This document shows, one piece after another, positions 31,772-64,000 of a DNA stretch of 64,000 bases. The notes under the pieces were generated by a model. The model saw nothing but the letters and a program-made list of their open reading frames with translations. It did not search any database and was not told the DNA's origin. The translations under genes and the position numbers were made by a program. The DNA is from Scenedesmus sp. PABB004 (lineage: Eukaryota), in the NCBI GenBank assembly GCA_014905635.1, contig JABVCE010000012.1:62001-126000 (forward strand), read 5' to 3'. Every line of letters starts with the position of its first letter. The stretch's first letter is position 1.

Positions 31772-34745
<2,974 letters not shown>

Positions 34746-45238: not shown

Positions 45239-45314
<76 letters not shown>

Positions 45315-45542
45315 CTAAACACACAAACAACCAACCCCGCCCGCCCCGCAGGCTACTGGGCGTTCTCCAACGCGTCGGACCGCTTCGGCATCAAGAAGGC
45401 CGCCAAGAAGCGCAGCGGGCGCGCGGCCGCGAGCGCGGCGGCGCCGTTTGACGAGGACGAGTGGGTGAAGGGCACGCCGTACGACGTGGACAAGCGCAAG
45501 CGCGCCGCCGCGGGCGCGGGCGGCAAGGCCAAGGCCACGTGA
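43599..45542 (+). CDS. SSR1: Translocon-associated protein alpha (TRAP-alpha/SSR1), multi-exon
   Basis: Signal peptide; [49 protein letters not shown], a TM helix, a basic tail and DEWVKGT. Confidence 0.9.
45190..45312. repeat. (CA)n intronic microsatellite
   Basis: Long CA/CGCA run in the last TRAP-alpha intron. Confidence 0.95.
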
Positions 45543-45935
45543 GGCCGCCGGCGCGGAGGGGCGGGCGGGGCGGGCGGGGCGGAGGGGCGGGCGGGGCGGG
45601 CAGAGGGCGCGGGCGGGCGGGCGGACGGGCGCGTGTGCGGGGCGCCGCGGGGCGGGACGGGGGCGGAGGGCGGGGGCGCGGCAGCGTGCGGCGGTGTGGG
45701 CGGCCGCCGCCTGCGGTGCGCGCGCGCGCGCGCGTGAGCGGCGCAGCCGCGCGCCGTGCACGTGGGCGCTGCTCCGGCGTCTGTGACTAGACGGCGCGCG
45801 CGGGGCGGGGGAGCGGCGCCCCCCGCACTGCCGGCAGCCGCAGCGACGCGGCCCGCCGTTTTTGTGCAGGGCGCCTGCTGCTGGGTTGCGGCTGGGAGGC
45901 CTCAGTAACTGGCGACGCGCGCGCGGTCGCACGGC

Positions 45936-46070
45936 AGCGGGATGAACACCTGTGGCGGCGGCGGTGGTGCGGCTGTGAGCCAGCGGCGGAGGCCGGCCCG
46001 GTGCGGCGGCCGCGCGGGGCCGGGCGGCGCCCAACCTTAGGCGAGAACGTGATTGCTCGGTGCCCCGCGT
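45936..46070 (-). pseudogene. Inverted orphan fragment of the FO synthase gene (exon 1 end, intron 1, exon 2 start)
   Basis: Reverse complement of about 49934-50068 (GCACCGAGCAATCACGTTCTCGCCTAAGGTTGGG...CAGGTGTTCATCCCGCT) with few mismatches. Confidence 0.88.
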
Positions 46071-46074
46071 GCCC

Positions 46075-47812
46075 CTGGGGCGACGCGGTGCAGGGCCCAG
46101 GGCGCAGGCGCCGCCCGGCCGGCTGCCCGCGCCGCCGCCGAGGAGGAGGCCCCCCGCGCGACCCGCCCCGCCGCCCACACAGCCGCCGCCCTCAGCGCCT
46201 CCCTGCCGCACGCACGCACAAGCGCCGGCCGCGGCCCACAGCTCCCGCACACGCACACACGCCGCCCAGCGCACGCCCCCGCCCGCGGCGCGCCCCTGGC
46301 CAGGCGGGGCGACGCGCGTCGGGCGCCTGACGGCCGGGCCGACCCGTCCAGCGCAGCGCCAGGCGAGCCGCGCGCGCGGGCAGGCGGGGAGGAGGCAGCA
46401 GCGGCGGACGAGCCGCGCTGCGCGGCGCCCGCTGAGGGCGGCGGGGGCTGCGGCGGTGCGCGGGTGGCGGGCGTGTGGCGTGTGCCGCCGGGCCTGCGCG
46501 CCCCGGGCGCCGCTGGCAGGCCCGCCGCCGCGCCGCCGCGCCGGGGCGCCGGGGCGGGCGCCGCGCGCTGCTGCTGCGCTCACGCCAGCACAGCGAGCTG
46601 GCCGGCGCGCGCTGCTCCTGAGCCCACGCCGTACATGCTGCAGCCGGCGCCACGCAGCCAGGCCAGGCCCGCCAGGTCACCGCACGCCGCGCGCGCCTCC
46701 GCCAGCTGTTGCTGCTGAACCTGCTGCTCCCACCCGTCATCCTGCGCCGCCCGCCACGCCTGCTGCACCGCCGCCAGCGGCAGCTCGGGGCAGCGCAGCG
46801 AGACGACCGTGGCGCCGCGGAAGCGCTCGCGCGCTGCCTTGCAGACCAGCTTGGCGCTCCATGCCTGCAGGGCCGGCGGCCAGAGGCTCAGGGCGTGGAG
46901 CACGAGCGGCTCGGGCAGGCCTGTCCACGGGCTGCGGGCGGCGCGGCGGGGTGGGGCAGGCGGCGTGGGCGGGCGCGTGCACAGGGGCGGCGGGGCCTGC
47001 TGCGCCTGACTGTGGCTGGGTGCTCAGCGCCCGCCTAACCAGGCAGCAGCACCAGCCACCAGAGGGGCGCCGGCAGCGCCGCGCCCACCTCGGCGCCGCC
47101 CTGTCGCCGTCGGGCGCCTCGCCCGCCGCAGCTGCCGCAGCCGCCCGCGCGCGCGTGGTCGGCCCGGCGCGCCGCTTGCCCTCTGGCAACGACATGGCGC
47201 CGCCCGGAGCCTGCGTACCAGAGAGGAAGCAGCAGGCGGCGGCGGCAGCGGGCGCGAGCGCGCGGGCGGGGAGTGGGCGCGCGACCAGGGGCTGGACCTG
47301 AGGGGCGTGTGCAGCGGCGCAGCCGAGGGCGGGCAGCTCGCGTTGCTGCGCTGGGCACGCGCGCAGGCGCCGCCGCTGCCCTGGGGCGACAACGTGTGCT
47401 CCCGGGCTGCGGCGCGCGGCGACCTGGAGATGCTGCGCTGGGCGCGCGCCCAGGCCGAGCCCGCGCCGTGGGGCTGGACGGCGTGCTGGGTGGCGGCTAT
47501 GCAGGGGCAGCTGGAGGCGCTGCGCTGGCTGCGCGCCAGCGGCTGCCCGTGGCGGCGCAGCATGTGCGAGGCCTGGGCGGCAGACAAAGGCCACGCGGCC
47601 GTGGTCGCGTGGATCCGGGCGCAGCCTGCGGCGGCGGACGACGGGACCGATGACGACTGGTAGGAGGAGGATGGAGGAGGGGGGGCTGGCAGTGAAACGA
47701 GGAGGGCGAGGGCGCCCCTTGGCTGCGGACGGCTGACGGTGGCGTGCGTGGCGGGGCGGCGTGCGTGGCGGGGCGCGCGTTGCACAGATGCGGCCGGCAA
47801 CCGGCTGACCGC
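46075..47812 (+). pseudogene. F-box-like/ankyrin-like cassette copy A, disrupted by an internal inversion of about 46585-47269
   Basis: The upstream block and the 3' repeats (47270-47663) are on +, whereas exon 1 (ATG 47195), the intron and the first half of exon 2 are on -; the inverted block is nearly identical to copy D. Confidence 0.85.
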
Positions 47813-47987
47813 GGCGATCCCTGGACCGGCGGCGCGGCGGCAACGAGCGCGCGCGGCCCGGCAAGGGCGCGGTCAGTCGGTTGCCAGCGCGCCGACGTTT
47901 GGCAGCGCGTGGCCGCCGCAGCGCCCGCAGCCACACACGCGGCCAACCGCGTAGCTGCCGCTCCTAGCCCAGGTCCTCCTCCTCCAA

Positions 47988-48959
47988 TCAAAAGTCGTCG
48001 TAGTCGTCCGGCGACTCAGGCTGCTCCTGGATCCACGACACCACGGCCTCGTGTTCGGCGCCCTCCGCCACGCGCTCGCAGCCGCCGCGCTTCCACGGGC
48101 AGCCGTTGGCGCGCAGCCAGCGCAGCGCCTCCAGCTGGCCGTGCTCAGCCGCCGCCCAGCACGCCCCCCAGTGCCACGGCGCGGGCGGCGACTGGGCGCG
48201 CGCCCAGCGCAGCACCTCCACGTTGCCGCGCTCCGCAGCGTTGTTGCACACGTTGTCGCCCCAGGCAGCGGCGGCGCCTGCGCGCGCGCCCAGCGCAGCA
48301 CCGCGATCTGCCCGCCCTCGGCTGCTGCCTCGCACACGTCCCGCAGGTCCAGCCCCTGGTCGCGTGCCCACTCCAGCACGGCGATCTGGCCGGCGCGCGC
48401 TGCTGCGCAGACCACCATGCCCATCTCGCAGCCGGCGCGGCGCAGCCAGGCCAGGCCCGCCAGGTCGCCGCACGCCGCGCGCGCCTCGGCCAGCAGCCAC
48501 TCCATAACACCCTGCAGCTCCCGCCACGCCTCCTGCACCGCCGCCAGCGGCAGCTCGGGGCAGCTCAGCGAGACGCGCCTGGCGCCGCGGAAGCGCTCGC
48601 GCGCCGCCTTGCAGACCAGCTTGGCGGCCCACGCACGCAGGGCCGGCGGCAGGAAGCTCAGGACGTGGAGCACGAGCGGCTCGGGCAGCACTGGCTGCGC
48701 ACTGCTGGTGGCGTGGCGGGGCGGGGGCCCGCGCAGGGGCACCGGTGAGGCGGCGCGCGGCGCCTGCTGCAGGCAGCTGAGGCTCAGCGCTCGGCGCCCG
48801 CCTGGCCAGGCAGCCCCAGACATGGGGGCACCAGCAGCAGCAGCGCGCCCACCTCGGCGCCGCCCTGTCGCCGTCGGGCGCCTCGCCCGACGCCGCCGCC
48901 AGCGCAGCCCGCGCGCGCGTGGTCGGCCCGGCGCGCCGCTTGCCAGACGGCAGCGACAT
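47988..48959 (-). CDS. F-box-like/ankyrin-like repeat protein, copy B (2 exons; apparent 1-nt frameshift near 48264)
   Basis: Exon 1 MSLPSGKRRAGPTTRAR; exon 2 LPEPLVLHVLSFLPP...AKLVCKA followed by G.LxVLxWARxQ..PW repeats. Confidence 0.75.
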   Translation of the reverse strand: MSLPSGKRRAGPTTRARAALAAASGEAPDGDRAAPRWARCCCWCPHVWGCLARRAPSAEPQLPAAGAARRLTGAPARAPAPPRHQQCAASAARAARAPRPELPAAGPACVGRQAGLQGGARALPRRQARLAELPRAAAGGGAGGVAGAAGCYGVAAGRGARGVRRPGGPGLAAPRRLRDGHGGLRSSARRPDRRAGVGTRPGAGPAGRVRGSSRGRADRGAALGARAGAAAAWGDNVCNNAAERGNVEVLRWARAQSPPAPWHWGACWAAAEHGQLEALRWLRANGCPWKRGGCERVAEGAEHEAVVSWIQEQPESPDDYDDF

Positions 48960-49635
48960 GGCGCCGCCTGGTGCCGCCTGCGGGCCTGCGGGCCAGCAGG
49001 GAGCAGCAGGCGCCGCCGGCAGCGGGCGCGAGCGCGCAGTCCGTCTGACCCGAGCAGCAGCAGCAGCGCGCGGCGCGCCCGCCCCCGCCTCGGCGCCCCG
49101 GCGCGGCGGCGGGCCTGCCGGCGGCGCCCGGGGCGCGCAGGCCCGGTGGATCCCGCCACAAGCCCGCCACCCGCGCACCGCCGCAGCCCCCGCCGCCCCC
49201 AGCGGGCGCCGCGCAGCGCGGGCCGCCCGCCGCTGCCTCCTCCCCGCCCGCCCGCGCGCGGCTCGCCTGGAGCTGCACTGGGCGGGTCAGCTGGCCGTCA
49301 GGCGCCCGACGCGCGTCACCCCGCCTGGCCAGGGGCGCGCCGCGGGCGGGGGCGGGCGCTGGGCGGCGGCAGCGCGTGTGCGTGTGCGAGCTGTGGGCCG
49401 TGGCCGGCGCTCGTGCGTGTGTGTGTGGCAGGGAGGCGGTGAGGGCGGCGGCTGTGTTGGGGAACGGGACGGTGTGCGCGCTGGAGGCCTCCGCGACGGC
49501 GGCGCGGGCAGCCGGCCGGGCGGCGCCTGCGCCCTGCGCCGCCGCCGATCACTGCGCGCCGCCTAGCTCGCCGTGCCGCTGTCGTCTCCACAACGAACAC
49601 CACCGACAGCGCCGCGCAATCGAAGCGTCGCTGGC

Positions 49636-52600
49636 ATGCGCGCGGCGGCAGTGGCGCCGGTCGCAGCAGCGGCGCCGGCCGCCGCGCTCCCGCGCCGCCT
49701 CGCGGCGCCGCGGGGCCCGGCGCGGAGCCACCTTCATGCCGCTCGCGAGCTCCCGGCGCAGCGCCGGCAGCGCCCGGCAGCCGTGCGCGCCGCGCCCGGC
49801 GGCGCCGCTGCTGGCCACAGAGCGCCGGGCGGCGCCGCGCCCGGCGCGGGCGTCGCGCGGGGCGGCAGTCTCCGGGAGCGCCTGCTGCGCGCGCCGCTGC
49901 CCGAGCTGATGGCCGAGGCGGCGGCGCTGCGCGACGCGGGGCACCGAGCAATCACGTTCTCGCCTAAGGTTGGGCGCCGCCCGGCCCCGCGCGGCCGCTG
50001 CACAGGGCCGGCCTCTGCCGCTGGCTCACAGCCGCACCACCGCCGCCGCCACAGGTGTTCATCCCGCTCACGCAGCTCTGCCGCGACGCGTGCGGGTGCG
50101 CGGCGCGGCGGCGGGGACCGGCGGCGGCGGGTCGGCGCCGCGCGGCGCGCGCAGCGCAGCTGCAGGCCAGGCTGACGGCGCGGCCCGCGCGTGCGGGTGA
50201 CGCGCGGCTCGCCGCCGCGGTGGTGGCGGCCGCAGGTACTGCACGTTTGCGCGGCCTCCCGCGCCCGGCGCGCGGTGCTACATGACGCTGCCAGAGGTGC
50301 TGGCCGTTGCGCGGCTCGGCGCGGCCGCGGGCTGCGCCGAGGCCCTGTTCACGCTGGGTGCGGCGCGCGCGCAGCGCCCGCGGCGCGCGCGGCGCTGGCC
50401 TGTGTTCGCCCGCGCGGCGCGGCGCGCGCGCGCCGAAGTCGCGGCCCCGCGCCCTGCGCGGCGCGCAGGCGACAAGCCGGAGCTCGCCTACCCCGAGGCT
50501 GCGGCAGAGCTCGCGGCGATAGGCCACGCGAGCACGCTTGACTACGTGGCGTCCGCGGCGGCGGCGGTGCTGGCCGAGACGGGGCTGCTGCCTCACATCA
50601 ACGCCGGCGTCATGGACGAGGCCGCGCTCACGACGTGCGGCAGCGGCCTCGCCGGCGGCGGCCGCCGGGCGGCCGCGGCTGCGGGGCAGCCGGGGGCGCA
50701 GCGCCGCCGCCGCCGCCGCCGGCAGCGGCAGCAGCGCAACGCCGGCCGCTGCGCCCTAAACCACCCCGCGCCCTAAAACCCTGCAGGCTCAAGGCGGTGA
50801 GCGCGAGCCAGGGGCTCATGCTCGAGGGCACCGCGCCGTCGCTCGCCGCGCCCGGCGGGCCGCACTGGGGCTGCCCCGACAAGGACCCCGCCGCGCGCCT
50901 CGCGACGATTGAGGCCGCCGGCCACGCGCGCGTGCCCTTCACGTCGGGTGCGCGCGGGCCGCCGCCGCCGCCGGCGTGGGCTGCGCGCGCGTGCTCGCGC
51001 ACGCGCGCCGCCGCTGCACGCTCGCGCGCGCGCGCCGCCGAGCCGCCCCGCCCCGCTCCCCGCCTCCCCTGTTCCCAAGGCATCCTCATCGGCCTCGGCG
51101 AGGCGCGCAGCGAGCGCCTTGACGCGCTCGAGGCCCTCGCAGCGAGCCACGCGCGGCACGGGCACATACAGGAGGTCATCATCCAAAACTTTCGGTGCGA
51201 GCCGCGGCGCGCTCAACCCGCGGCGGCGCTTGAGCCCGCGGCGCGCTTGAGCCCGCGGCGGCGCTCGGGCCGCAGCGACGCCCCGCGGCGTGCGAGCCCG
51301 GACGCGCCCGCGGCGCACGTCACCCGTGCTGCGCGGCCGCCGTGCGCAGGGCCAAGCCGCTGACCGCGATGGCTGGCCACCCAGAGCCGCCGCTCGAGGA
51401 GCTGCTGTGGACGGTCGCCGCCGCGCGGCTGCTCTTTGGCGCGCGCATGGCCATCCAGGCGCCGCCAAACCTCACGCCCGGCGACGCCGGCGGCGGCGGC
51501 GCGGCGGCGAGCTGGCGCGCGCTGCTGGACGCGGGCGTCAGCGACTGGGGTGCGCGCGCGCGCACAGCTGCCCAGTCGCGCGCTGCCTGCACCGCGCGCC
51601 GCGCACCGCGCAGCGCCCACGCCCGCCCCGCGTCCCCGCAGGCGGTATTTCGCCAGTGACGCGCGACTTTGTGAACCCGGAGCGGGCCTGGCCCCACCTC
51701 GCACCGCTCGCGGCCGCGACGGCCGACGCGGGCAAGCTGCTGCTGCCGCGGCTGCCGGCGTACCCGAGCTACGTGCTGGACCTGGGCCACGGCAGCGGCG
51801 GCGCGCCCGCGCCGTGGCTCAGCCGCGACGGCGGGCCGCGCAGCGTCGCGGCGGCGGCCCTGCGCGCGAGCGACAGCAGCGGCCTGCTGCGCGGCAGCGC
51901 GTGGGCGGCGGGCGCGGCGGAGGAGGAGGGCGCGCCAGGCGGCGGTGCGGCGGCGGCGCCGCCGCGCGAGCATGGCCAGGGCCAGGAGCAGCACCCGGGC
52001 GAGGCGCAGGCGGCGCTGCTGGAGCAGCTGCGCGCGCCGGCGCGGCACGTCGCGGCGGGCCCCGGCTCCGCCGCGCCCGCGCAGGCGCCGGCGAAGGCGC
52101 CGGCCGTGCCGCCGCCGCGGCAGCGCGCGGCCAAGGCGTGGGACATTCGCGTGGGCCCGCTGGGCGCGCTCGAGGGCGTGCCGGCGCCGCGGCACGTCGC
52201 GCCGGACGTCGCCGCGCTGCTGGCCGAGGTGCTCGCGACCGCGCCGCCGCCGCCGCGCGGCAGCGACGCCGCCGGCGCGGCGCCGCCGCCGCTCCCGCGC
52301 GGCGGCCGCGACTGGACCGCGCGCGAGGTGGAGCTGCTGCTGTGCGCGCGCGGCGCCGACGCGGCGGCGGTCATCGCGGCGGCCGACGCACTGCGCGAGG
52401 CCGTGGCAGGGGAGACCGTGAGCTACGTGGTCAACCGCAACATCAACTACACCAACGTCTGCACGTTTGCCTGCAGCTTCTGCGCCTTCTCAAAGGTGCG
52501 GCTGCGGCGGCGTGCGAGTGTGACCGCGCGCGTGCGGTGCGTCGGCAGCGACGGCGGGCGCCGCAGGCTCACGGCGGCGGCGGCGGCGGCGGCCGCGGCG

Positions 52601-54509
52601 CGGCGCGCCCGCAGGGCAAGGCGGCGGACGGCCTGCGCGGCGCGCCGTACCTGCTGCCGCTGGAGGAGGTCACCCGCCGCGCGGCTGAGGCGTGGGACCG
52701 CGGCGCGACCGAGGTCTGCCTGCAGGGGTGCGCGCCGCGCCCCGCTCGCCCCTCGCGCCCTTCGCGCCGCGCCGCGCCACGCTCAGCCCCGCCGCCACGC
52801 CCGGCCAGCCCGCCGCCCGGCGTCGACCAGCCCGCCCGCCGTGCCCCGCGCCGCTGCGCCGCCGCGCCGCAGCGGCATCCACCCTCACTTCACCGGCGAG
52901 ACCTACCTGGCAATCCTGGCCGCCGCCAAGGCGGGCGCGCCGGGCATCCACGTGCACGCGTTCAGCCCGCTGGAGGTCACGCACGTGCGCGGCGGCGCGG
53001 CGGCGCGGCGCCGCGGGCCGACCTCCGTCGGGGGCCGCGCAGGGGGCCGCGCGGCGCCGACGTGCCGCCGCGCTGCGCACGGGGCTGCGCGCAGGGCGCG
53101 GCGACGCTGGGCCTCCCGGTCGGGGACTACCTGCGCCAGCTCAAGGCCGCCGGCCTGGGCAGCCTGCCCGGCACGGCGGCGGAGGTGCTGGACGCCGAGG
53201 TGATGATGGGGCCCGCCCGCCCGCCCGCCCCGGCGCGCGCGTCGCGCTGCAGCCGCTGGCCCGCCCGCCCCGCCGCCTGACCGCGTGTCGCGCTCCCGCC
53301 GCCGGCCCGCCGACCCGCCGCCTGACCGCGCGTCGCGCTCCCGCCGCTGGCCCGCCGCCCCGCCGCCTGACCGCGCGTCGCGCCCGCCGCCGCGGCCGCA
53401 GGTGCGCGCCGCGCTGTGCCCCGACAAGCTGAGCGCGGAGGCGTGGCTGGAGACGGTCGCGGCCGCGCATGCAGCAGGGCTGCCGACCACCAGCACCATC
53501 ATGTTTGGCCACCTTGACAGCCCGCCCGCCTGGGCGCGCCACCTGCTCGCGCTGCGCGACCTCCAGGCGCGCGCGCGCGCGGCGCGCGGGCGCGGGCGCG
53601 GGCGCGGGCGGGCGGCGCAGAGGGCCTGCCGCCGCACGCCGCGCGCCACGCCCCGCGCGCGAGGTTGAGCCGCGCCCCGGCGCCCGCGCGCCGCACGCCG
53701 CTGACCGCGCCGCGCCGTCCGCCCCGCAGGCGCGCACGGGGGGATCACCGAGTTTGTGCCGCTGCCGTTTGTGCACATGGAGGCGCCCGTCTTCCGCGCC
53801 GGCGGCGCGCGGCGCGGGCCGACGCTGCGCGAGGCGGTGGTCATGCACGCCGCGGCGCGCCTCGTGCTGCACCCGCTCATACCCAACATACAGGCCAGGT
53901 GCGGTCGCTCTGCCACACGCGCCCCCGCACGCGGCCGCCGCGGCCGCCAGCGCCCGCCGCCCGTGCTGCCGCGCCTGCGGCGCCTGCGGCGCCTGCGGCG
54001 CCGTCACAAGCGCCGCGCCACCCCCGCGTCGCTCCGCACCCGCGCCCCAGCTGGGTCAAGATGGGCCCCGCGCGCGCGGCGGCGCTGCTGGCGGCGGGCT
54101 GCAACGACATGGGCGGCAGCATAATGAACGAGAGCATCACGCGCGCGGCGGGTGGGTGTTATTTTTTTGCGTCACTTGTCACTTTGACGGCGGTCACGCT
54201 GCGCTGACCGCCGCGACGGCGGCGGGCCCCGCGCCGCCCCGCCGCCCCCGCGCGGCGGCCGACCGCGACCGCCGCCCCTGCCGCCCCCGCCGCTGCCGCC
54301 GGCGCGCCGCAGGCGCGGCGCACGGGCAGGAGCTGCCGCCGGCCGCGATGGAGGCGGCCATCGCCGCTGCGGGGCGCGTGCCGCGGCAGCGGACCACCCT
54401 GTACGGTGTGCCGCCGCCGGCGCAGGTCGTGGCGAGCTTTGCCGCCGCCGAGCTCGCGCCGCTGCGGACGGGCGCCCGTCCGCTCGCCGGCGAGCGCGCG
54501 CGCGCGTGA
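49636..54509 (+). CDS. fbiC: FO (7,8-didemethyl-8-hydroxy-5-deazariboflavin) synthase, fused CofG-CofH radical SAM enzyme, multi-exon
   Basis: [81 protein letters not shown]; second domain YVVNRNINYTNVCTFACSFCAFSK, GLGSLPGTAAEVLD and GCNDMGGSIMNESITRAAG; apparent 1-nt slip near 53743. Confidence 0.93.
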
Positions 54510-55041
54510 GGCGTGCGCGTGTGAGCCCCGCAGTTGCGCCGCGAGGGGAACCCGCCGCCCACAGCCGCCGCCCTCAGCGCCTCCCTGCAGCACGCGCACG
54601 CACGAGCGCCGGCCGCGGCCCACAGCTCCCGCACGCACACGCGCCGCCGCCGCCCAGCGCCCGCCCCCGCCCGCGGCGCGCCCCTGGCCAGGCGGGGCGA
54701 CGCGCGTCGGGCGCCTGACAGCCGGGCCGGTCCGCGCAGCGCCAGGCGAGCCGTGCGCGCGGGCAGGCGGGGAGCAGGCAGCAGCGGGCGGGCCGCGCTG
54801 CGCGGCGCCCGCTGCGGGCGGCGGGGGCTGCGGCGGTGCGCGGGTGGCGGGCGTGTGGCGTGGGCCGCCGGGCCTGCGCGCCCCGGGCGCCGCTGGCAGG
54901 CCCGTCGCCGCGCCGCCGCGCCACGGGGCGGGGGCCGGCGCCGCGCGCGGCTGCTGCTGCGCTCACGCCGCCCGCGCGCTCGCGCCCCGCTGCCGCCGCC
55001 GCCTGCTGCTCCCTGCTGGCACGCAGTCCCCAGGCGGCGCC

Positions 55042-56039
55042 ATGTCGCCGCCGTCTGGCAAGCGGCGCGCCGGGCCGACCACGCGCGCACGGGCGGCGGC
55101 GGCAGCGGCGGCGGGCGAGTCCGCGCAGGCGGCGGCGAGGTGGGCGCGGCGCTGCTGGCGCCCTCTGGTGGATGGCGCTGCTGCCTGGCCAGGCGGGCAC
55201 TGCGCACCCAGCCACAGTCAGGCGCAGCAGGCGCCGCGCACCGCCTCACCGCCGCCCCTGTGCGCGCGCCCGCCCCGCCGCCTGCCCCACCTCGCCGCGC
55301 CGCTCGCAGCCCGTGGACGGAGCTGCCCGAGCCTCTCGTGCTCCACGCCCTGAGCCTCTGGCCGCCGGCCCTGCAGGCGTGGAGCGCCAAGCTGGTCTGC
55401 AAGGCGGCGCGCGAGCGCTTCCGCGGCGCCACGGTCGTCTCGCTGCGCTGCCCCGAGCTGCCGCTGGCGGCGGTGCAGGCGGCGTGGCGGGCGGTGCAGG
55501 GTGACGCGTGGGAGCAGCAGCAGAAGCGGTGGGAGCTGGCCAGGGCACGCGCGGCGTGCGGCGACCTGGCGGGGCTGGCCTGGCTGCGCCGCGCCGGCTG
55601 CAGCATGGACTGGCGCGTGGGCTCGGCAGCGGCGCTCGCCGGCCAGCTCGCCGTGCTGGAGTGGGCGCGCGACCAGGGGCTGTACCTGGGGGAGGTGTGC
55701 GAGGGAGCAGCCGAGGGCGGGCAGCTGGCGGTGCTGCGCTGGGCGCGCGCGCAGGCGCCGCCGCTGTTCTGGGGCGACTGGGTGTGCCGCTTTGCTGCGC
55801 GGCGCGGCGACCTGGAGATGCTGCGCTGGGCGCGCGCCCAGGCCGAGCCCGCGCCGTGGGGGAACGGCACGTGCCAGGTGGCGGCTGTGCACGGGCACCT
55901 GGAGGTGCTGCGCTGGCTGCGCGCCAACGGCTGCCCGTGGTCGCGCAAATGGTGCGAGCGCCAGGCGGCACGCAAAGGCCACGCGGCCGTGCTGGCGTGG
56001 ATCCGGGCGCAGCCTGCGTCGCCGGACGACGGCCGCTGA
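55042..56039 (+). CDS. F-box-like/ankyrin-like repeat protein, copy C (2 exons, intact)
   Basis: Exon 1 MSPPSGKRRAGPTTRAR..., intron about 55140-55309, exon 2 SPWTELPEPLVLHALSLWPP...; four GxLxxLxWxRxxGxPW-type repeats. Confidence 0.8.
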
Positions 56040-56445
56040 CGTTTAGTTGTAGGACCTGTGCTGGGAGCCAAGCGAGGAGGATGCACGCGCCCCTTGACTG
56101 CGGCCGGCGCCGCCGCGCGCGGCCAGCGACCAGCGCGCCCGCCGCCGGCGCGGTGGCGTGGGGGCGCGCTTTCGCTGGCTGGCTGCTCCCTTGCGCTTCA
56201 GAGCTGCTGTGACGCGTGCGGGGCGGTGCTTGGCAGGGAGCGGCCGCGGGAGCTCACGCAAGTTGTGTGGTGGTTGGCTGCCGGCTCCAGGAATTCCTGG
56301 CCGCCCGAGCTTTTCCGCCCCGCGCCGCTGCCGACCCGCCGCTCTCCAGACCTCGCCAGTGACCAGAGCTCCCCCGCCTCTGCACAAGCCAGGCACGCAC
56401 CTGAGCTCGAGAAGCAGCCTCTCCCCGCAGCCCCAGCTCGCCACC

Positions 56446-57807
56446 ATGCTGGCCTCCCGCAGCTCCGCCCGCGGCGCGACCGCGCGCAGCAGCAGCAGCC
56501 GCGGCGCCTCGCTGGCGCCGCGGGTGCAGCGCGCCCGCGCGCTCTGCGTGCGCGCCACCGCCAACGTGCCGCCCGCGGAGAAGTCGGGCCTCGCCAAGGT
56601 GCGTGTTGGGCACGACGCGCGAGCCGCGCTGCCGCGCGACGCGCGCCGCTGCTCCGGCGCGAGCGCGAGGGCAGCGCCATCCCGCGCTGCCGCCGCCCGG
56701 CCGGCACGGGGCCCGCGCGGCTCCCAGCGCCGGCGCGGAGGCACGGACGTGCTGCGGGCCAGCTCTCCCCGCTTGCGCGGGGCCGGCCGGCAGGCGCCGC
56801 CGCGGGCGCGCCGGGCTGTGGCCAGCGGCGCGCGCGCCGCGGCGCCGCCGCGGCGCCCGCAGCCCGCGCCGCGGCGCCGCCGCGGCGCCCGCAGCCCGCG
56901 CCGCGGCGCCCGCGGCCTCCGCCGCGCCCCCGCGCCCTCCGTCGCCTCCCCCGCTCACCCGCGCTGCCCCCGCGCTGCCCCGCCGGCGCCGCCGCAGTTT
57001 GCCGACTCGATCGGCCTCCCCACCGACGAGGGCCTGTTTGGCTTCAAGCCCTTTGCCGAGGTCTGGTGCGGCCGCCTCGCGATGATGGGCTTTGTCGTGT
57101 CCATCGTCGAGGAGGCGATGACGGGCCAGGGCACGCTCGGGCAGCTCGGCCTCGCGACGCCGTCGCCGGGCCTGCTCGCCGCGCTCGGCGGCGCGGCGGG
57201 CGTCGCGACGCTGCTCGGCACCGCCAACACCGCGGCCAAGCTCGTCACCAAGCGCATGACGCCGCAGGACGTGGCGCGGTACAAGAACTTCCTGGGGCTG
57301 AACAACCCCAACGACTTCATGGCCGCCGCGGCCGACATGAAGGCGCGCGGCGACTTCACGTCGCTCTCCAACAACCCCGACGCCATCGCCGCGGCGCGCG
57401 CGGCGGGGCTGCCCGCCGACGCGGTGCTCGGCGTGTCGGGCGCGGCCGAGGCGGCCGCCGACGCGGCGGCGGAGATGAAGGCCGCGCCGGCGGGCCTGCT
57501 CTCGCTGACCAAGGCCGACGAGGCCGCGCAGGTCGCCGACGCGGCCGCGGCGGCCAAGGCGCCGGCGCCGCCGTCCGGGCCGAGCGTGTCGCTGTCGGCG
57601 CGGCGCGACGTGCTGGAGCAGAGCGTGTTTAGCGCCAACGCGGAGCTCGCGTACGCGCGCGGCGTGGAGCTCACCAACGGCCGCTGGGCGATGCTGGGCT
57701 TCCTGACCGCGGTGCTGGTCGAGGCGGGGACAGGCAAGGGCATCATCCTGCAGATCATCATGTGGCTCAAGCTGGTCGGCCTCCTCGGCGCGGCCTCGGG
57801 CTTCTGA
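56446..57807 (+). CDS. Light-harvesting-like (LHC-like, ELIP/LHL4-type) photoprotective protein, 2 exons
   Basis: Transit peptide ending ALCVRATA; two LHC motifs, FAEVWCGRLAMMGF and VELTNGRWAMLGF, with a central TM helix. Confidence 0.85.
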   Translation: MLASRSSARGATARSSSSRGASLAPRVQRARALCVRATANVPPAEKSGLAKVRVGHDARAALPRDARRCSGASARAAPSRAAAARPARGPRGSQRRRGGTDVLRASSPRLRGAGRQAPPRARRAVASGARAAAPPRRPQPAPRRRRGARSPRRGARGLRRAPAPSVASPAHPRCPRAAPPAPPQFADSIGLPTDEGLFGFKPFAEVWCGRLAMMGFVVSIVEEAMTGQGTLGQLGLATPSPGLLAALGGAAGVATLLGTANTAAKLVTKRMTPQDVARYKNFLGLNNPNDFMAAAADMKARGDFTSLSNNPDAIAAARAAGLPADAVLGVSGAAEAAADAAAEMKAAPAGLLSLTKADEAAQVADAAAAAKAPAPPSGPSVSLSARRDVLEQSVFSANAELAYARGVELTNGRWAMLGFLTAVLVEAGTGKGIILQIIMWLKLVGLLGAASGF

Positions 57808-58699
57808 GCGCCGCAAGGCCTCGGCGCGGCGCGTGGCGCGCGCAGCGACTGCGTGTGTGCCTGAGCGCGAGCGCGGCGAGAGAGCGCGAGAGAGCGCGAG
57901 AGAGAGAGCGCGAGAGAGGCGTGCGCAGCGAGGGGCGGCGGGCTTCAGCAGCCGGGCGGCTGCTGCGGGCGGCGGCGGGGGCTCTGCCGGGGCGGCAGCG
58001 CGCAATAAAAGGCAGCACGAGCGACGGGTGTGTGTGGGCGTGCCGGGCGAATTCGCCGCCGCCCTCTGTGGTCCGAGGGTAACGCCCCGGCGAGGTCGGC
58101 GCGCGCGCCGCACCCGGGGACGGCGGGCGGTGCAGGGCCCAGGGCGCAGGCGCCGCCCGGCCGCCTGCCCGCGCCGCCGACGAGGAGGCCCCCTGCGCGC
58201 GCAGCCCAGCCGCCCAACACAGCCGCCGCCCTCAGCGCCTCCCTGCAGCACGCGCACGCACGAGCGCCGGCCGCGGCCCGCAGCTCCCGCACGCACGCGC
58301 GCCGCCGCCGCGCAGCGCCCGCCCCCGCCCGCGGCGCGCCCCTGGCTAGGCGGGGCGACGCGCGTCGGGCGCCTGACAGCCGGGCCGGTCCGCGCAGCGC
58401 CAGGCGAGCCGCGCGCGCGGGCAGGCGGGGAGCAGGCAGCAGCGGGCGGGCCGCGCTGCGCGGCGCCCGCTGCGGGCGGCGGGGGCTGCGGCGGTGCGCG
58501 GATGGCGGGCGTGTGGCGTGGGCCGCCGGGCCTGCGCGCCCCAGGCGCCGCTGGCAGGCCCGCCGCCGCGCCGCCGCGCCGGGGCGCCGGGGCGGGCGCC
58601 GCGCGCTGCTGCTGCTGCGCTCACGCCGCCCGCGCGCTCGCGCCCGCTGCCGCCGCCGCCTGCTGCTTCCTCTCTGGTACGCAGGCTCCGGGCGGCGCC

Positions 58700-59720
58700 A
58701 TGTCGTTGCCAGAGGGCAAGCGGCGCGCCGGGCCGACCACGCGCGCGCGGGCGGCTGCGGCAGCTGCGGCGGGCGAGGCGCCCGACGGCGACAGGGCGGC
58801 GCCGAGGTGGGCGCGGCGCTGCCGGCGCCCCTCTGGTGGCTGGTGCTGCTGCCTGGTTAGGCGGGCGCTGAGCACCCAGCCACAGTCAGGCGCAGCAGGC
58901 CCCGCCGCCCCTGTGCACGCGCCCGCCCACGCCGCCTGCCCCACCCCGCCGCGCCGCCCGCAGCCCGTGGACAGGCCTGCCCGAGCCGCTCGTGCTCCAC
59001 GCCCTGAGCCTCTGGCCGCCGGCCCTGCAGGCATGGAGCGCCAAGCTGGTCTGCAAGGCAGCGCGCGAGCGCTTCCGCGGCGCCACGGTCGTCTCGCTGC
59101 GCTGCCCCGAGCTGCCGCTGGCGGCGGTGCAGCAGGCGTGGCGGGCGGCGCAGGATGACGGGTGGGAGCAGCAGGTTCAGCAGCAAGAGCTGGCGGAGGC
59201 GCGCGCGGCGTGCGGTGACCTGGCGGGCCTGGCCTGGCTGCGTGGCGCCGGCTGCAGCATGTACGGCGTGGGCTCAGGAGCAGCGCGCGCCGGCCAGCTC
59301 GCTGTGCTGGAGTGGGCGCGCGACCAGGGGCTGGACCTGGGGGGCGTGTGCCTTGGAGCAGCCAGGGGCGGGCAGCTGGCGGTGCTGCGCTGGGCGCGCG
59401 CGCAGGCGCCGCCGCTGCCCTGGGGCTATGGTGCTTATGTGTGCCACTGGGCTGCGGAGCGCGGCGACCTTGAGATGCTGCGCTGGGCGCGCGCCCAGGC
59501 CGAGCCCGCGCCGTGGGACTGGAGGGCGTGCTGGGCGGCGGCGTTGTATGGGCACCTGGAGGCGCTGCGCTGGCTGCGCGCCAGCGGCTGCCCGTGGTCG
59601 CGCAGCGAGTGCGAGCGCGTGGCGGCTCAGTGTGGCCAGATAGTTGTGGCCGCGTGGATTCGAGCGCAGCCCGTGGCGCCGGACGACGAGCCTGACGACG
59701 ACAGCGACAACGACTGGTAG
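58700..59720 (+). CDS. F-box-like/ankyrin-like repeat protein, copy D (2 exons, intact)
   Basis: Exon 1 MSLPEGKRRAGPTTRAR; exon 2 SPWTGLPEPLVLHALSLW...; acidic tail DDEPDDDSDNDW. Confidence 0.8.
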
Positions 59721-60242
59721 GAGGAGGATGAGGGGGGGGGGGGCTGGGAGTGAAACGAGGAGGGCGAGGGCGCCCCTTGACTGCGGCCGGCTGCGCACGG
59801 TGGCGGCGTGCATGGCACGCGCGTTGCGACGCGGCCGGCAACCGGCTGACTGCGCTTCGCGCACCGGTTCGAGGGCGCGCGCGCAGCCGGAGTGGTCGCC
59901 CACGCTCGGCCGGCGCGCAGCTGAGTCAGCTGAGCTTTGTGACCGCCGGCGGTCGGCCGCTACGGCCGCGGCGATCGGGCCCGCCGCCCGCCGGGCCCGC
60001 CTCCATTACCGCTTGGTCGGGCTGCGGATGCCTCACAGCGGCGCGCTTGACGCCGGCCGCGCGCGCTGCCGACCAGCCCCACCGCCGCAACCGCCCTCCC
60101 CGGGGCGACCTCTGCCAACCGTTGAGCACCAGGCTCTGCTGTCGCGCAGGCGACGGCAACAAGCGCGAGGCACGCGGCACAAGCCCTGCTCAATGACGAC
60201 GGCCCGCACGCCCCGCACTCTCCGGCGCCCCCCGCGCGCCTC

Positions 60243-61441
60243 CTAGCCCGGGCTGCCCAGCGCCGGCAGCGGCGCCGCCGGCTCGCCCGCCGCGCGCGTG
60301 GCGTCGCCGGCACCGCGGCCCGCGCCGAACGCGCTGCCGTTGGTGCGCAGGCACGCGCCGTCGGCCAGCTGCGCCGGCGCCGCCGCCGCTGCCGCCGCGC
60401 CGGTCGCCGGGCCCGCGCCCTCGGCGCCGCCCGCCGCCGCCGCTGCCAGGGCGGCGGCGCGGTCGGGCGGGCAGGTGTCGTTGAAGAAAAAACGCTGCCC
60501 CCCGCACCCGGCCGCGAGCTGGCGCACCAGGAGGCCGTAAAACGCCTCGTCCGCGCCGGCAAAGCGCACCGCGACCGCCAGCACTGCGCGGCGCGGCGGC
60601 GGGCGCGCGTCTGCGGCCGCGCGAGGGGGCTGCGCGGCACGGCCGCACCGCCCCCGCCCCCTGCCCCCCGCGCCGCCGCGCCGCACCGCCCGGCTCGCAG
60701 TCGCACAGCAGGTTCTGGTTGAAGCGGCACGCGCTCGCGCAGCACGCGGGCGCCGGCGCCGCGAGGGCCTGGCCGAGGTATGAGATGACCTCGTCACGCC
60801 GCACGCCGCGCGCCGCGAGCAGGGCAGTGTAGTTCTGGGGCCCTGGCCGCGGCGGGCGGCGGCGGCGGGGGGCTCGCGCAAGCGCGCGCGGCGCCGCGGC
60901 GCCACCGGCCGTGCGCCAGCCGCGCCGGCCGTCGGCCCTGGAACCTCACTCGAACCCCTGCACCCTGAGCCCTCAGCCCTGACACCCACCGATGACGTCG
61001 ACGGTGAGGTTGAAGTGGCGCAGCGCCGCCGCGATCTCCACGGCGCACGCGCTGAACAGCCCGCTGCGCGGCGCGGCGCGCGGCGCGCGACGCGCGTTGG
61101 CACGGCGCGCGCGTGTGCCCGCCCAGGCCCTTGCGCGCGCGCGGCCGCGCCGCGCCGCGCCTGCCGGCGACGATGCAGCGCTCCGGCACGCCGACCGCGG
61201 CGGCCGAGGCCGCGCTGCCCGCGTCGAGCGGCAGCTGCGGCGGCGGCGCGGGCGCGGCGCCGCCGCCGTCACGCGGCGCGTCGGGCAGGTCCGGCTGCAG
61301 CAGCGCCGCCTGCGCGGCCGCCGCGGCCGCGGCCGGCCCGGGCCGCTGCGCGGCGAGCGGCTGCCCCGCCACTGCTGCCACGACCGCCACGAGCACCACC
61401 AGCGTCCAGAGCGACCTCCACTGCGCGCGTGGGGCTGGCAT
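60243..61441 (-). CDS. Small putative secreted Cys-containing protein, multi-exon, unknown function
   Basis: Signal peptide MPAPRAQWRSLWTLVVLVAVVAAVAG; exons GVPERCIV, GLFSACAVEI, ACCASACRFNQNLLCDCEP and LAAGCGGQRFFFNDTCP. Confidence 0.55.
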
Positions 61442-61669
61442 GCTGCGCTGACGCTGCGCCGGACCGGCGCCAGGGGCTGCAGCGCCGGCGCGCAGCAGCT
61501 GGCGTGCGGCGCGGGCCGTGCGTCGACCTCGTCCTCGCGGATCCGCGCGTGCGCTTGAGCCCCAGGCCGCGTCCGCAGCAGCCGAGGGCGCGAGCAGGCC
61601 GTGCGGGCGCGGCGGCGGGTGCACACTGCGGCGGCGGGTGCGGGCGCGGCGGAGTCGGCGACCGGCGAC

Positions 61670-61810
61670 CGGCGACGCGTGTGTGTGCGTGTGGGACAGG
61701 GGCGCTGAGGGCGGCGGCTGTGGGCGCGGGGCGGCGCGCGCGGGGAGGCCTCCTCGGCGGCGGCGCGGGCAGCCGGCCAGGCGGCACCTGCGCCCTGCGC
61801 CCTGCGTCGC
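61670..61810 (-). repeat. Solo copy of the upstream block of the ankyrin-like cassette
   Basis: GCGCTGAGGGCGGCGGCTGTG...CCTCCTCGGCGGCGGCGCGGGCAGCCGGCCAGGCGGCACCTGCGCCCTG, homologous to 63490-63613, 49420-49537, 46090-46220 and 58132-58260. Confidence 0.75.
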
Positions 61811-62028
61811 CGCGCGCCGCTGCCGGCGGGCAGCGCAGAGAGGGCGCCGCTGCCAGCGCACGGCGGCCGCATTCGGGTGCACACGGCCCGCAAAGGGTGC
61901 GTCGCGCGGTCAGCCGGTTGCCAGGGCGCCGCCAGCCTGGGGGCGGCGCGCGCGGCCGACCGCGCTCACGCGGCGTGCACCTCCGCCTCCTCGTGCGAGC
62001 CCCCCTCCTCGTCCGAGCTGCAGCCCTC

Positions 62029-63043
62029 CTACTCATCATCTGAGTCCCAGTCAGCGCCATCGTCCGCCGCCGCGGGCTGCTCCTGGATCCACGCGACCAC
62101 GGCCTCGTGGCCCTCGCGTGTCGCCCCGCGCTCGCACATTGTGCGCCACCACGGGCAGCCGTTGGTGCGCAGCCAGCACAGCGCCTCGAGCTGCCCGTTC
62201 CAAGCCGCCAGGTAGCACGTGTGATCGTCCCACGGCGCGGGCTCGGCCTGGGCGCGCGCCCAGCGCAGCATCTCCACGTCGCCGCGCCGCGCAGCAAAGC
62301 GGCACACCCAGTCGCCCCAAGGCAGCGGCGGCGCCTGCGCGCGCGCCCAGCGCAGCACCGCCAGCTGCCCGCCCTCGGCTGCTCCCTCGCACACGTCCCG
62401 CAGGTCCAGCCCCTGGTCGCGCGCCCACTCCGGCACGGCAAGCTGGGCATGGCGCGCTGCTTTAAGGCCCACGCCCGGGTCCATGGCGCAGCCGGCGCCG
62501 CGCAGCCAGGCCAGCCCCGCCACGTCGCCGCACGCCGCACGCGCCCCGGCCAGCTGTTGCTGCTGAACCTGCTGCTCCCACCCGTCACCCTGCACCGACC
62601 GCCAGGCATCCTGCACCGCCGCCAGCGGCAGCTCGGGGCAGCGCAGCGAGACACGCCTGGCGCCGCGGAAGCGCTCGCGCGCCGCCTTGCAGACCAGCTT
62701 GGCGGTCCACGCCTGCAGGGACGGCGGCAGGAAGCTCAGGACGTGGAGCACGAGGGGCTCGGGCAGGTCTGGCTGCGGGCTGAGGGCGGCGCGGTGGGGC
62801 GATGGCGGGCGCGCGCGTGCAGAGGTCGGCGGTGAGGCGGCGCACGGCGCCTGCTGCGCCTGGCTGTGGCTGGGTGCTCAGTGCCCGCATAGCCAGGCAG
62901 CCCCACACAGGGGGGCACCAGCAGCAGCCGCGCGCCCACCTCGCCGCCGCCTCTGCACTGCCGGGCGCCTCGCCCGCCGCAGCTGCCGCCCGCGCGCGCG
63001 TGGTCGGTCCGGCGCGCCGCTTGCCCGCCGGCGCAGCAGACAT
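62029..63043 (-). CDS. F-box-like/ankyrin-like repeat protein, copy E (2 exons, intact)
   Basis: Exon 1 MSAAPAGKRRAGPTTRAR; exon 2 PDLPEPLVLHVLSFLPPSLQAWTAKLVCK...; acidic tail DWDSDDE. Confidence 0.8.
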
Positions 63044-63710
63044 GGCGGGTGCTGGGGCCCTGCGGGCCAGCAGGGAGCAGCAGGCGGCGCCGGCAGCGGG
63101 CGTGAGCGCTCGGGCGGCGTGAGCGCAGCAGCAGCAGCAGAGCGCGGCGCCCGCCTCGGCGCCCAGGCGCGGCGGCGCGGCGGCGGGCCTGCCAGCGGCG
63201 CTCGAGGCGCGCAGGACCGGCAGTCCATGCCACACGCCCGCCCGCCGCGCACCCCCGCAGCCCCCGCCGCCCGCAGCGGGTGCCGTGCAGCGCGGCCAGC
63301 CGCTGCCTGCTCACCGCCTGCCCGCGCGCGCGGCTCGCCTGGCGCTGCACTGGACGGGTCAGCCCGGCCGTCAGGCGCCCGGCGCGCGTCGCCCCGCCTG
63401 GCCAGGGGCGCGCCGCGGGCGCGGGCGGGCGCTGGGCGGCGGCGGCGCGTGTGCGTGCGGGGCTGTGGGCCGCGGCCGGCGCTCGTGCGTGTGTGTGTGG
63501 CAGAGAGGCGCTGAGGGCGGCGGCTGTGTTGGGCGGCGGGCCGGCGCGCGCGGGGCCCTCCTCGGCGGCGGCGCGGGCAGCCGGCCGGGCGGCGCCTGCG
63601 GCCTGGGCCCTGCACCGCCGGCGGCCCGGCCGGGCGCGCCGCGCGGTGCAGCGCGTGCGGTGGATGCGTGTTGCAGCACCCCGCCGCGGCCCCCCCTCTG
63701 CTAGCTCGCC

Positions 63711-63995
63711 TCACACGCCGGCGCCACCGGCCGCCGCGGCCGCCGCCGCGGCCGCGGCCGCGGCCGCTCGCCGCCGCGCGTCGCGCCCGCGCTCGCTGTC
63801 CGTCTTGGCGCACGCCTCGTCGCGCTCGCCCGCGAGGCTGCACGCCGGCACGAAGCAGGGCTGGCCGTAGACGGGGTCGGCCTCGATCGGCGGCGGCGCC
63901 TGGCCAAAGATCATCTCGCAGGACAGGTCCTCAAAGTTGGGGTTCATCGTCAGCGGCATGCCAAAGTCGTTTGTGAAAAAGCTCTGCGTCGGCAC
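63711..63995 (-). CDS. Last exon of a beta-carotene isomerase D27-like (DUF4033) gene running off the right edge
   Basis: VPTQSFFTNDFGMPLTMNPNFEDLSCEMIFGQAPPPIEADPVYGQPC matches the D27-like C-terminus. Confidence 0.8.
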   Translation of the reverse strand: MPTQSFFTNDFGMPLTMNPNFEDLSCEMIFGQAPPPIEADPVYGQPCFVPACSLAGERDEACAKTDSERGRDARRRAAAAAAAAAAAAAGGAGV

Positions 63996-64000
63996 CTGCG

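Follow-up and report, generated by a model that had tools for sequence, protein, structure and literature searches.

A mosaic family of F-box-like, ankyrin-type repeat genes with a variable repeat face in Scenedesmus sp. PABB004

The DNA described here is a 64,000-nt stretch from the chlorophycean alga Scenedesmus sp. PABB004 (GenBank assembly GCA_014905635.1, contig JABVCE010000012.1, positions 62,001–126,000 of the forward strand), which we refer to as the window and number from its first letter. It contains five copies, A to E, of a paralogous unit of approximately 1.6 kb that carries a gene for an F-box-like module joined to a stack of short ankyrin-type repeats. Amino-acid replacement is strongly accelerated on one structural face of this stack, where it is faster than any neutral proxy. 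We interpret the copies as members of a lineage-specific family of putative substrate receptors of the Skp1–cullin–F-box (SCF) ubiquitin ligase whose ankyrin-type binding face is diversifying, a reading to which we give a probability of roughly 0.55.

The copies were located by searching the whole window with unit D (blastn) and with the D protein (tblastn). Five copies were found at 82–99.6% identity, all between 46 and 63.7 kb, and tblastn with the D protein detected none beyond these five in the window. Relative to the reference unit D (58102–59720, forward strand), unit C (54551–56041, forward) is 88.0% identical over 1515 nt, unit E (63645–62060, reverse) is 84.1% identical over 1621 nt and unit B (49540–48003, reverse) is 81.5% identical over 1582 nt. 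The G+C content of the window is about 80% throughout. Aligned as DNA, the copies share one layout: the start codon ATG with GKRRAGPTTRAR after it, a donor site GAG/GTGGGC which is identical among the copies and in phase 2, an intron of 151–170 nt in which insertions and deletions do not come in multiples of three, and a CAG acceptor that precedes CTGCCCGAGCC (LPEP...) by 13 nt. The same splice junctions are shared by the public gene model P0003, which is a gene prediction and not RNA evidence. Genes C (55042–56039, forward strand; exon 1 55042–55139, intron 55140–55309, exon 2 55310–56039; unit from 54551), D (58700–59720, forward; exon 1 58700–58806, intron 58807–58963, exon 2 58964–59720) and E (62029–63043, reverse; exon 1 63043–62940, intron 62939–62780, exon 2 62779–62029; unit to 63645) are intact. 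The initial annotation had placed five paralogous two-exon genes in this region. The five copies lie where it put them, and the predicted two-exon structure fits their alignment, but this structure is intact in C, D and E alone, so that at most three of the five copies in this assembly are intact genes.

Unit A has been rearranged into three pieces. The first (46085–46586, forward strand) is the upstream non-coding part and is 91.2% identical over 512 nt to D 58127–58627. The second (46576–47269, reverse strand) lies in the opposite orientation to both flanks and is 99.6% identical over 694 nt to D 58626–59319; it contains the proximal upstream region, exon 1 (47195–47089), the intron and the beginning of exon 2 (46931–46580), which comprises the F-box-like module, the linker and the first repeats and is truncated at the inversion junction. 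The third piece (47270–47663, forward strand) is the rest of exon 2, namely repeats 2b–6 and the acidic tail, with A's own residues at the variable positions (slots, defined below). Similarity to D of the kind expected for a 3' untranslated region (UTR) continues to 47813, with 81.4% identity between 47270–47813 and D 59309–59854. The inversion is exact and balanced at 694 bp, with no bases lost at the junctions 46576–46586 and 47269/47270. In the un-inverted arrangement the two breakpoints show an inverted match of 11 nt in which 9 of 11 positions agree, and the D copy lies 11 kb away. The inverted piece was copied very recently from D or from D's source, and the event could be a recent inverted gene conversion, a template switch or an assembly chimera. 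Since exon 1, the F-box-like part and slot 1 of A duplicate those of D, the N-terminal slots of A are not an independent sample. Gene B (47988–48959, reverse strand; exon 1 48959–48853, intron, exon 2 from 48701; unit to 49540) is frameshifted by a 1-nt deletion near 48263, which shifts the frame after RWARAQAPPLP.

The intact genes are predicted to encode proteins of about 275–287 residues, in which a short basic exon-1 peptide is followed by the F-box-like three-helix module, a linker, six short ankyrin-type repeats and an acidic tail. The ankyrin-type fold proposed from the sequence is borne out by profile, model and fold comparisons alike. The Pfam family PF13637 (Ank_4; cut-off 22.7 bits) is above its cut-off in four of the five window pieces scanned (D, 36.5 bits; A piece 3, 36.0 bits; C, 31.7 bits, E = 1.8e-7; E, 25.2 bits, E = 2.3e-5), and A piece 3 also matches Ank_2 at 37.9 bits (cut-off 27.3). 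Ank_4 is likewise above its cut-off in all 13 family sequences of alignment A1, on which the AlphaFold2 model was based. This model has a predicted local distance difference test (pLDDT) score of 82 overall and of 85–98 over residues 80–235, and contains six helix pairs. The top Foldseek matches in the PDB are all ankyrin-repeat proteins or designed ankyrin-repeat proteins (DARPins), with a probability of 1.00, a best E value of 1.8e-4 and a TM score of about 0.5. The canonical ankyrin repeat has 33 residues with a TPLH motif. Here the repeat has 27–31 residues (the Cys-to-Cys spacing in D is 31, 29 and 27) and the pattern xxxxCxxAAxxG(H/Q/D)LxxLxWxRxxxxPxPW, in which TPLH is not present; it is therefore a compact variant of the ankyrin type.

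Similar repeats had been stated to occur in green algae and giant viruses. This is supported by 16,214 representative proteins (cluster representatives), which show the repeat type to be very widespread, and by 187 predicted viral structures in the BFVD, in each case at E ≤ 1e-3. The viral matches are led by Pandoravirus and Cedratvirus and also include Pithovirus, with a best E value of 7.5e-9 and identities of 25–37%. Two Pandoravirus proteins described as 'F-box domain containing' align over approximately 250 columns.

The placement of the variable residues was examined in an alignment of 19 units, comprising the window copies, three annotated paralogues and eleven segments from nine long fused public models. 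On grounds of repeat geometry, the four positions leading up to the conserved Cys in each of repeats 2–6, the two that follow it and the two ahead of the conserved Gly were taken as slots, giving 40 columns, and all other columns are referred to as scaffold. The mean column entropy is 2.15 bits in the slots versus 0.58 bits in the scaffold. Although the slots make up only 38 of the 227 scored columns, they hold 17 of the 20, 24 of the 30 and 29 of the 40 most variable ones. In helix A of each repeat the variable residues are spaced i, i+1, i+4, i+5, i+8, i+9, the Cys and Ala-Ala on its other face are fixed, and every second helix (helix B) is fixed. On the predicted model the variation falls in each repeat's loop and on a single face of its first (inner) helix. 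In solved ankyrin complexes, ligands are bound by this surface, as stated in PMC4986451 citing Javadi and Itzhaki. The scaffold and slot peptides quoted in the initial annotation are all present in the translations, and the variable residues are not scattered, as it had anticipated.

The rate tests rest on four to five DNA copies, which give ten pairs. By the Nei–Gojobori method (NG86), nonsynonymous divergence (dN) in the slots is 0.40–0.80 against a synonymous divergence (dS) of 0.05–0.16 in the scaffold, a ratio of 3.1–16, while dN/dS is 1.4–3.6 within the slots and 0.3–1.7 within the scaffold. Slot dN is above the intron and upstream divergence in ten of ten pairs. Because the extreme codon bias deflates dS in NG86, codon models with F3x4 frequencies were also fitted. 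With IQ-TREE (GY+F3X4), omega (dN/dS) over both partitions is 0.57, with 0.34 in the scaffold and 2.08 in the slots, and the tree length is 0.75 substitutions per codon for the scaffold versus 6.27 for the slots. When branch lengths and the synonymous rate are common to both partitions in a maximum-likelihood (ML) model, which we term shared dS, omega is 0.29 for the scaffold and 3.26 for the slots, and omega_slot = 1 is rejected (2dlnL = 37.3, p = 1e-9). The scaffold omega of 0.29–0.34 is significantly below 1 (p = 7e-7). When columns are chosen solely from the three paralogues outside the window, which yields 23 cross-validated columns with 13 inside the slots, the shared-dS omega is 3.59 (p = 8e-9). 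Pairwise ML, which requires no tree, gives an omega_slot of 1.7–30 that exceeds 1 in all ten pairs and reaches p < 0.05 in eight of them, including the independent pairs D–C (p = 2e-4) and E–B (p = 3e-6). A formal omega above 1 depends on a uniform synonymous rate along the gene, and on these comparisons positive selection at the slots is likely, though not proven.

The copies also share conserved non-coding DNA ahead of the gene. In D this region (58211–58699, forward strand) has 80–97% mean pairwise identity in 30-column windows, and equivalent stretches of about 470 bp precede A, B, C and E. Over these 470 bp the copies are 86–93% identical, compared with 82–86% in exon 2 and 73–93% in the intron, and the upstream insertions and deletions are not multiples of three. 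The region is probably the promoter and 5' UTR, or its conservation may be a plain sign of recent duplication or conversion. Because this non-coding part is equally conserved, the invariant scaffold owes much to recent copying or homogenization. The 'almost fixed' scaffold described earlier is real in that the peptides are there, but it reflects in part the recency of the copies. Two partial upstream regions stand alone: one (61628–61811, reverse strand) lies about 220 nt downstream of the E stop codon and is 80.4% identical over 189 nt to D 58126–58311, and the other (718–882, reverse strand) is 76% identical and has no attached gene. These orphan fragments may be what is left of copies that were lost.

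Along the unit, one paralogue gives way to another as the nearest. Identity between C and D is 96–99% upstream and through the F-box-like part, that between A and D is about 100% in A's inverted segment, and C and E are 95–96% identical at 59336–59456, where slot 3 is exactly shared. This mosaic similarity indicates that gene conversion or recombination shuffles segments between copies. The family has at least 19 distinct aligned units, counted from the window and public protein models, of which 18 are on one 1.24-Mb contig (1,235,393 bp), scattered among unrelated genes over approximately 85 gene models. P0005 is on another contig and P0069, a relative with 44% identity, is on a third. The repertoire of five genes first proposed thus overstates the number of intact genes in the window, which is three, and understates the family. 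Distant homologues with the same N-terminal module are present in other data sets (P0011, P0014, P0016 and P0017), and P0029, from a transcriptome record, is a homologue that shares the architecture at 34% identity. A single-protein query of metagenome contigs returned four loci with ankyrin stretches that are only 40–44% identical and do not belong to this family.

The public annotation represents these genes poorly. P0003 (HT031_003968, hypothetical protein) is a fused model which joins B to the inverted piece of A (46580–48959), and nine further long public models with family units, from the same contig and in eight cases named Scenedesmus sp. PABB004, carry locus tags or accessions HT031_003954 to HT031_004038. 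The fused public models include, besides P0003, P0061–P0066, P0076, P0078, P0081 and P0102; nine have lengths of 554–1510 residues, and names such as CM1, SLC4A1AP, HET-E1 and btgE occur among them. The protein searches turned up none of C, D and E as separate annotated proteins. Since the annotation fuses members with each other and with their neighbours, the family is invisible in the current protein set.

The N-terminal module has the consensus LPEPLVLHxLSxLPPxLxxWxAKLVCKAARERF. Sub-threshold matches to the F-box-like family PF12937 occur in six of the eight family sequences scanned (E, B, P0004, P0005, P0006 and P0014), with E values of 0.0008–0.019, and always start at LPEPL; the other two, P0029 and P0011, gave no F-box-like match. 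On the F-box profiles (PF00646 and PF12937) the best window copy is E, with 16.5 bits against a cut-off of 24.3 and 14.8 bits against a cut-off of 20.5 (E = 0.0072), followed by B with 15.2 and 13.6 bits (E = 0.019). Among the members of alignment A1, 9 of 13 match PF12937 at E ≤ 1. When a profile of the N-terminal regions of 11 family sequences was compared with all PDB sequences at E ≤ 10, 11 matches of borderline significance were obtained. The top eight are F-box proteins aligned at their F-boxes, among them rice D3/MAX2 (E = 0.001), FBXO42 (E = 0.0024), FBXO2 (E = 0.13) and FBXL17 (E = 0.43), and the remaining three are DNA polymerase III chi. The stretch LPEPLxLHxLSFL matches D3/MAX2 nearly residue for residue. 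Helices are predicted, with low confidence, at residues 7–15, 19–29 and 31–38, at the places expected for an F-box. Furthermore, the more distant relatives P0034 and P0050, which have the same repeats, carry F-box domains recognized by Pfam. The module is probably a divergent F-box, and we call it F-box-like since its membership in the F-box domain is not established. Ahead of it, the exon-1 peptide GKRRAGPTTRAR is followed by poly-Ala (D 58709–58750 and equivalents); the peptide is basic, is kept in most members of the family, among them members beyond the window, and might be a nuclear localization signal.

If the family consists of SCF substrate receptors, the N-terminal module would dock the protein on Skp1 of the ligase and the repeat stack would bind a target protein through its loops and the face of its inner helices, as the fold and the placement of the variation suggest, with ubiquitylation of the target as the presumed outcome. 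The targets might be endogenous regulators, or proteins of viruses or parasites. Each paralogue would present its own set of about eight surface residues per repeat, and the paralogues together would form a panel of receptors with different specificities. The panel would be renewed by local duplication followed by the gene conversion or recombination that is visible in the mosaic similarity, and by the accelerated replacement observed at the surface positions, probably under positive selection, while copies would be lost by rearrangement, as in A, or by frameshift, as in B.

Several observations weigh against this interpretation. The slot definition was fixed after the alignment had been seen, a circumstance which the cross-validation answers only in part; the NG86 scaffold omega is 1.1–1.7 in some pairs involving B or C; and recombination between copies violates the single-tree assumption of the shared-dS model. 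Moreover, the slots have few synonymous sites, and when they are fitted alone with a synonymous rate of their own, omega comes to 1.67 (p = 0.12), or 1.34 (p = 0.60) for the cross-validated columns, while the proportion of synonymous differences (pS) in the slots is about twice that in the scaffold (0.16–0.30 versus 0.05–0.14). The diversifying selection proposed in the initial annotation, taken as a dN/dS above 1 at the slots, is thus significant with shared dS (p = 1e-9) but not with the slots' own dS. The raised slot pS and the own-dS result would fit concerted evolution without adaptive diversification, in which conversion keeps the copies alike and the slots are simply unconstrained surface residues that retain old neutral divergence or gain it fast. 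The mosaic similarity with its 99.6% identical converted segment would also fit, as would the fact that, in thousands of proteins with this repeat type, the slots are generally the positions that vary. We nevertheless consider this explanation rather unlikely, as the slots are patches of 2–4 codons that recur every 5–20 codons amid a scaffold which is identical even at third positions, and conversion tracts would need to pass over these patches again and again, unless selection acted against slots that had been converted. In addition, slot dN (0.40–0.80) exceeds the intron and upstream divergence in every pair, which neutral sites should not do.

Other points concern the N-terminal module, for which no window copy reaches the Pfam F-box cut-off (family scores of 15–19.6 bits versus 24.3) and Pfam gives no F-box match for D or C at E ≤ 1. 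Its pLDDT is low (54–71 in the model of the whole protein, 65 when folded alone and 54–75 for the predicted helices), and a fold search with the N-terminal 62 residues (VIA-align) was not specific for F-boxes, as Z stayed below 3 throughout and reached 2.8 at best. In this search the F-box of Skp2 (1fs1_C) ranked 26th of 36 with Z = 2.1 and a root-mean-square deviation of 3.4 Å over 41 aligned residues. The F-box-like assignment of the initial annotation is thus weakly supported: it falls short of Pfam recognition, though the profile comparison ranks solved F-box proteins first (MAX2/D3, E = 0.001). A fast-evolving family of ankyrin-type binders outside SCF, with the N-terminal helices as a family-specific cap or another interaction module, would accommodate the weak scores. 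It is an unlikely account in view of the consistent and correctly placed sub-threshold matches, the eight F-box proteins at the head of the 11 profile matches with D3/MAX2 nearly residue for residue, and the Pfam-recognized F-boxes of P0034 and P0050. It also counts against our interpretation that two of the five window copies (A and B) are broken, which together with the fused, chimeric public models around the family would suit a decaying or mis-assembled array, composed of untranscribed pseudogenes or artefacts of assembling repeats at 80% G+C and devoid of function. This is very improbable given the scaffold omega of 0.29–0.34 (p = 7e-7), the retention of ATG, splice sites, phase and full open reading frames (ORFs) in C, D and E, the confinement of the variation to one structural face, and the same architecture in P0029, 34% identical and from a transcriptome record. 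Finally, the unit could be the cargo of a locally hopping mobile element, an idea that would explain its scattering in both orientations and its interleaving with unrelated genes over about 85 gene models, and which the two orphan upstream fragments (61628–61811 and 718–882) might also favour. We find it scarcely credible: the unit is flanked neither by terminal inverted repeats nor by long terminal or other direct repeats, the only family-supported ORF within it is the ankyrin gene and none resembles a transposase or integrase, and its ends are ragged, since the start of C lies some 100 nt later than in the other units and the 3' ends are not alike. An inverted-repeat scan of 57900–60000 gave only short G+C-rich pairs, none of them at the unit ends, and the tandem repeats are of low complexity only.

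Two further possibilities were considered and set aside. Templated mutagenesis of the type used by diversity-generating retroelements has no template repeat or reverse transcriptase nearby, and a structured RNA in the upstream region was rejected on an RNAalifold covariation term of +11 with compensatory changes in 1 of 166 pairs; there were no Rfam matches in 45500–64000. Among the neighbouring genes, an ORF with a sub-threshold radical-SAM match and a CxxxCxxC motif (51290–53203, forward strand) lies between B and C, a gene of the chlorophyll a/b-binding family (56158–57807, forward strand; PF00504, E = 5.6e-13) lies between C and D, and the C-terminus of a D27-like beta-carotene isomerase (63711–63998, reverse strand; PF13225, E = 2.8e-15) is found at the end of the window. 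A (CA)n microsatellite of about 138 bp is present at 45192–45329, a 45-bp tandem repeat of 4.2 copies at 53211–53397 and a GAGCGC/GA-rich array at 57863–57918, which recurs at 33882–34024.

Within limited literature searches we found no description of such an F-box/ankyrin family in green algae. Close parallels are seen in the F-box families of nematodes and plants. In nematode F-box adaptor families positive selection acts on the substrate-binding domain (Thomas 2006, as described in PMC8120010), and plant FBX families behave similarly (PMC3030570). The algal family resembles both in having an N-terminal F-box or F-box-like module ahead of a variable C-terminal binding domain, in its clustered local duplicates, inverted or tandem, which undergo birth and death with pseudogenes, and in pairing an adaptor end that is conserved with a recognition end that evolves fast, for which a changing or foreign target is the hypothesis common to both. 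It differs in that its binding domain is a short ankyrin-type stack and not FTH/FBA, leucine-rich repeat, kelch or WD40, and in that it belongs to a chlorophycean host, is small (about 19 units seen) and has an F-box-like module below the Pfam threshold.

A second parallel is offered by the fungal NOD-like receptors (NLRs), in which the ankyrin, TPR and WD repeats are, according to PMC4986451, highly conserved apart from a few hypervariable positions under positive selection. As in the ankyrin repeats of these receptors (PMC4986451), the variable positions of the algal family are predicted to lie on the inner helices and the hairpin or loop of the concave face, and recombination and concerted evolution are involved in both. 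In the fungal proteins, however, as described there, the variation is between repeats in a gene and between alleles, with polymorphism in repeat number, whereas in the alga the number is fixed at six and the variation is between paralogues. The fungal repeats are attached to a NACHT or NB-ARC ATPase and the algal repeats to an F-box-like module. If our interpretation holds, it would extend the pattern of nematode and plant F-box families and of fungal NLR repeats to green algae. A binding surface that is quickly renewed beside a conserved adaptor end is often taken to point to conflict with pathogens.

The closest matches to the algal proteins come from Pandoravirus, Cedratvirus and Pithovirus, in their multicopy ankyrin and F-box proteins, with E values down to 7.5e-9 at 25–37% identity, better than for any PDB chain, and these matches include 'F-box domain containing' proteins of about 280–310 residues that align over approximately 250 columns. 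The pandoravirus F-box/ankyrin families are described in PMC5995976 as large and as occurring in tandem duplicates in unstable genome regions. The giant-virus genes have no introns, whereas the algal genes have a host-like G+C content of 80% and an intron of the spliceosomal type. A further link between ankyrin repeats and SCF comes from the chloroviruses, whose A682L and A607R proteins, both with ankyrin repeats, are reported in PMC7019647 to bind Skp1 through a C-terminal motif. Like these proteins, the algal family combines ankyrin repeats with a Skp1-binding motif, putative in its case, in a setting related to green algae. The motif is C-terminal in the chlorovirus proteins and, as a candidate, N-terminal in the algal family, and the former are viral effectors while the latter is a host family. 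The chlorovirus example shows that the SCF/ankyrin interface is contested between algae and their viruses. It is tempting to go further and regard the family as a panel of SCF receptors for intracellular non-self recognition, built on a compact natural DARPin-like scaffold of 27–31 residues, which would tag proteins of giant viruses or other parasites for degradation. Such a panel would owe its diversity to local duplication, to gene conversion among paralogues and to positive selection at about eight surface residues in each repeat. We think this extended reading decidedly unlikely. If it were true, the viral F-box/ankyrin families of the same repeat subtype would be its mirror image in an arms race fought over the SCF machinery of the host. 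Little is known of antiviral immunity in algae, and if our main interpretation holds, the cluster would supply concrete candidate receptors.

Finally, the algal repeats may be compared with DARPins, chains of which are among the top Foldseek matches. Both have a fixed repeat framework in which diversity is limited to positions in the loop and first helix, and we take the algal slot positions to correspond to those randomized in DARPin design. DARPins use the canonical 33-residue repeat with TPLH, whereas the algal repeats have 27–31 residues without TPLH, and the position that aligns with the TPLH histidine also varies. A short and regular repeat of 27–31 residues in which diversity is naturally tolerated at defined positions could be of interest to protein engineers.

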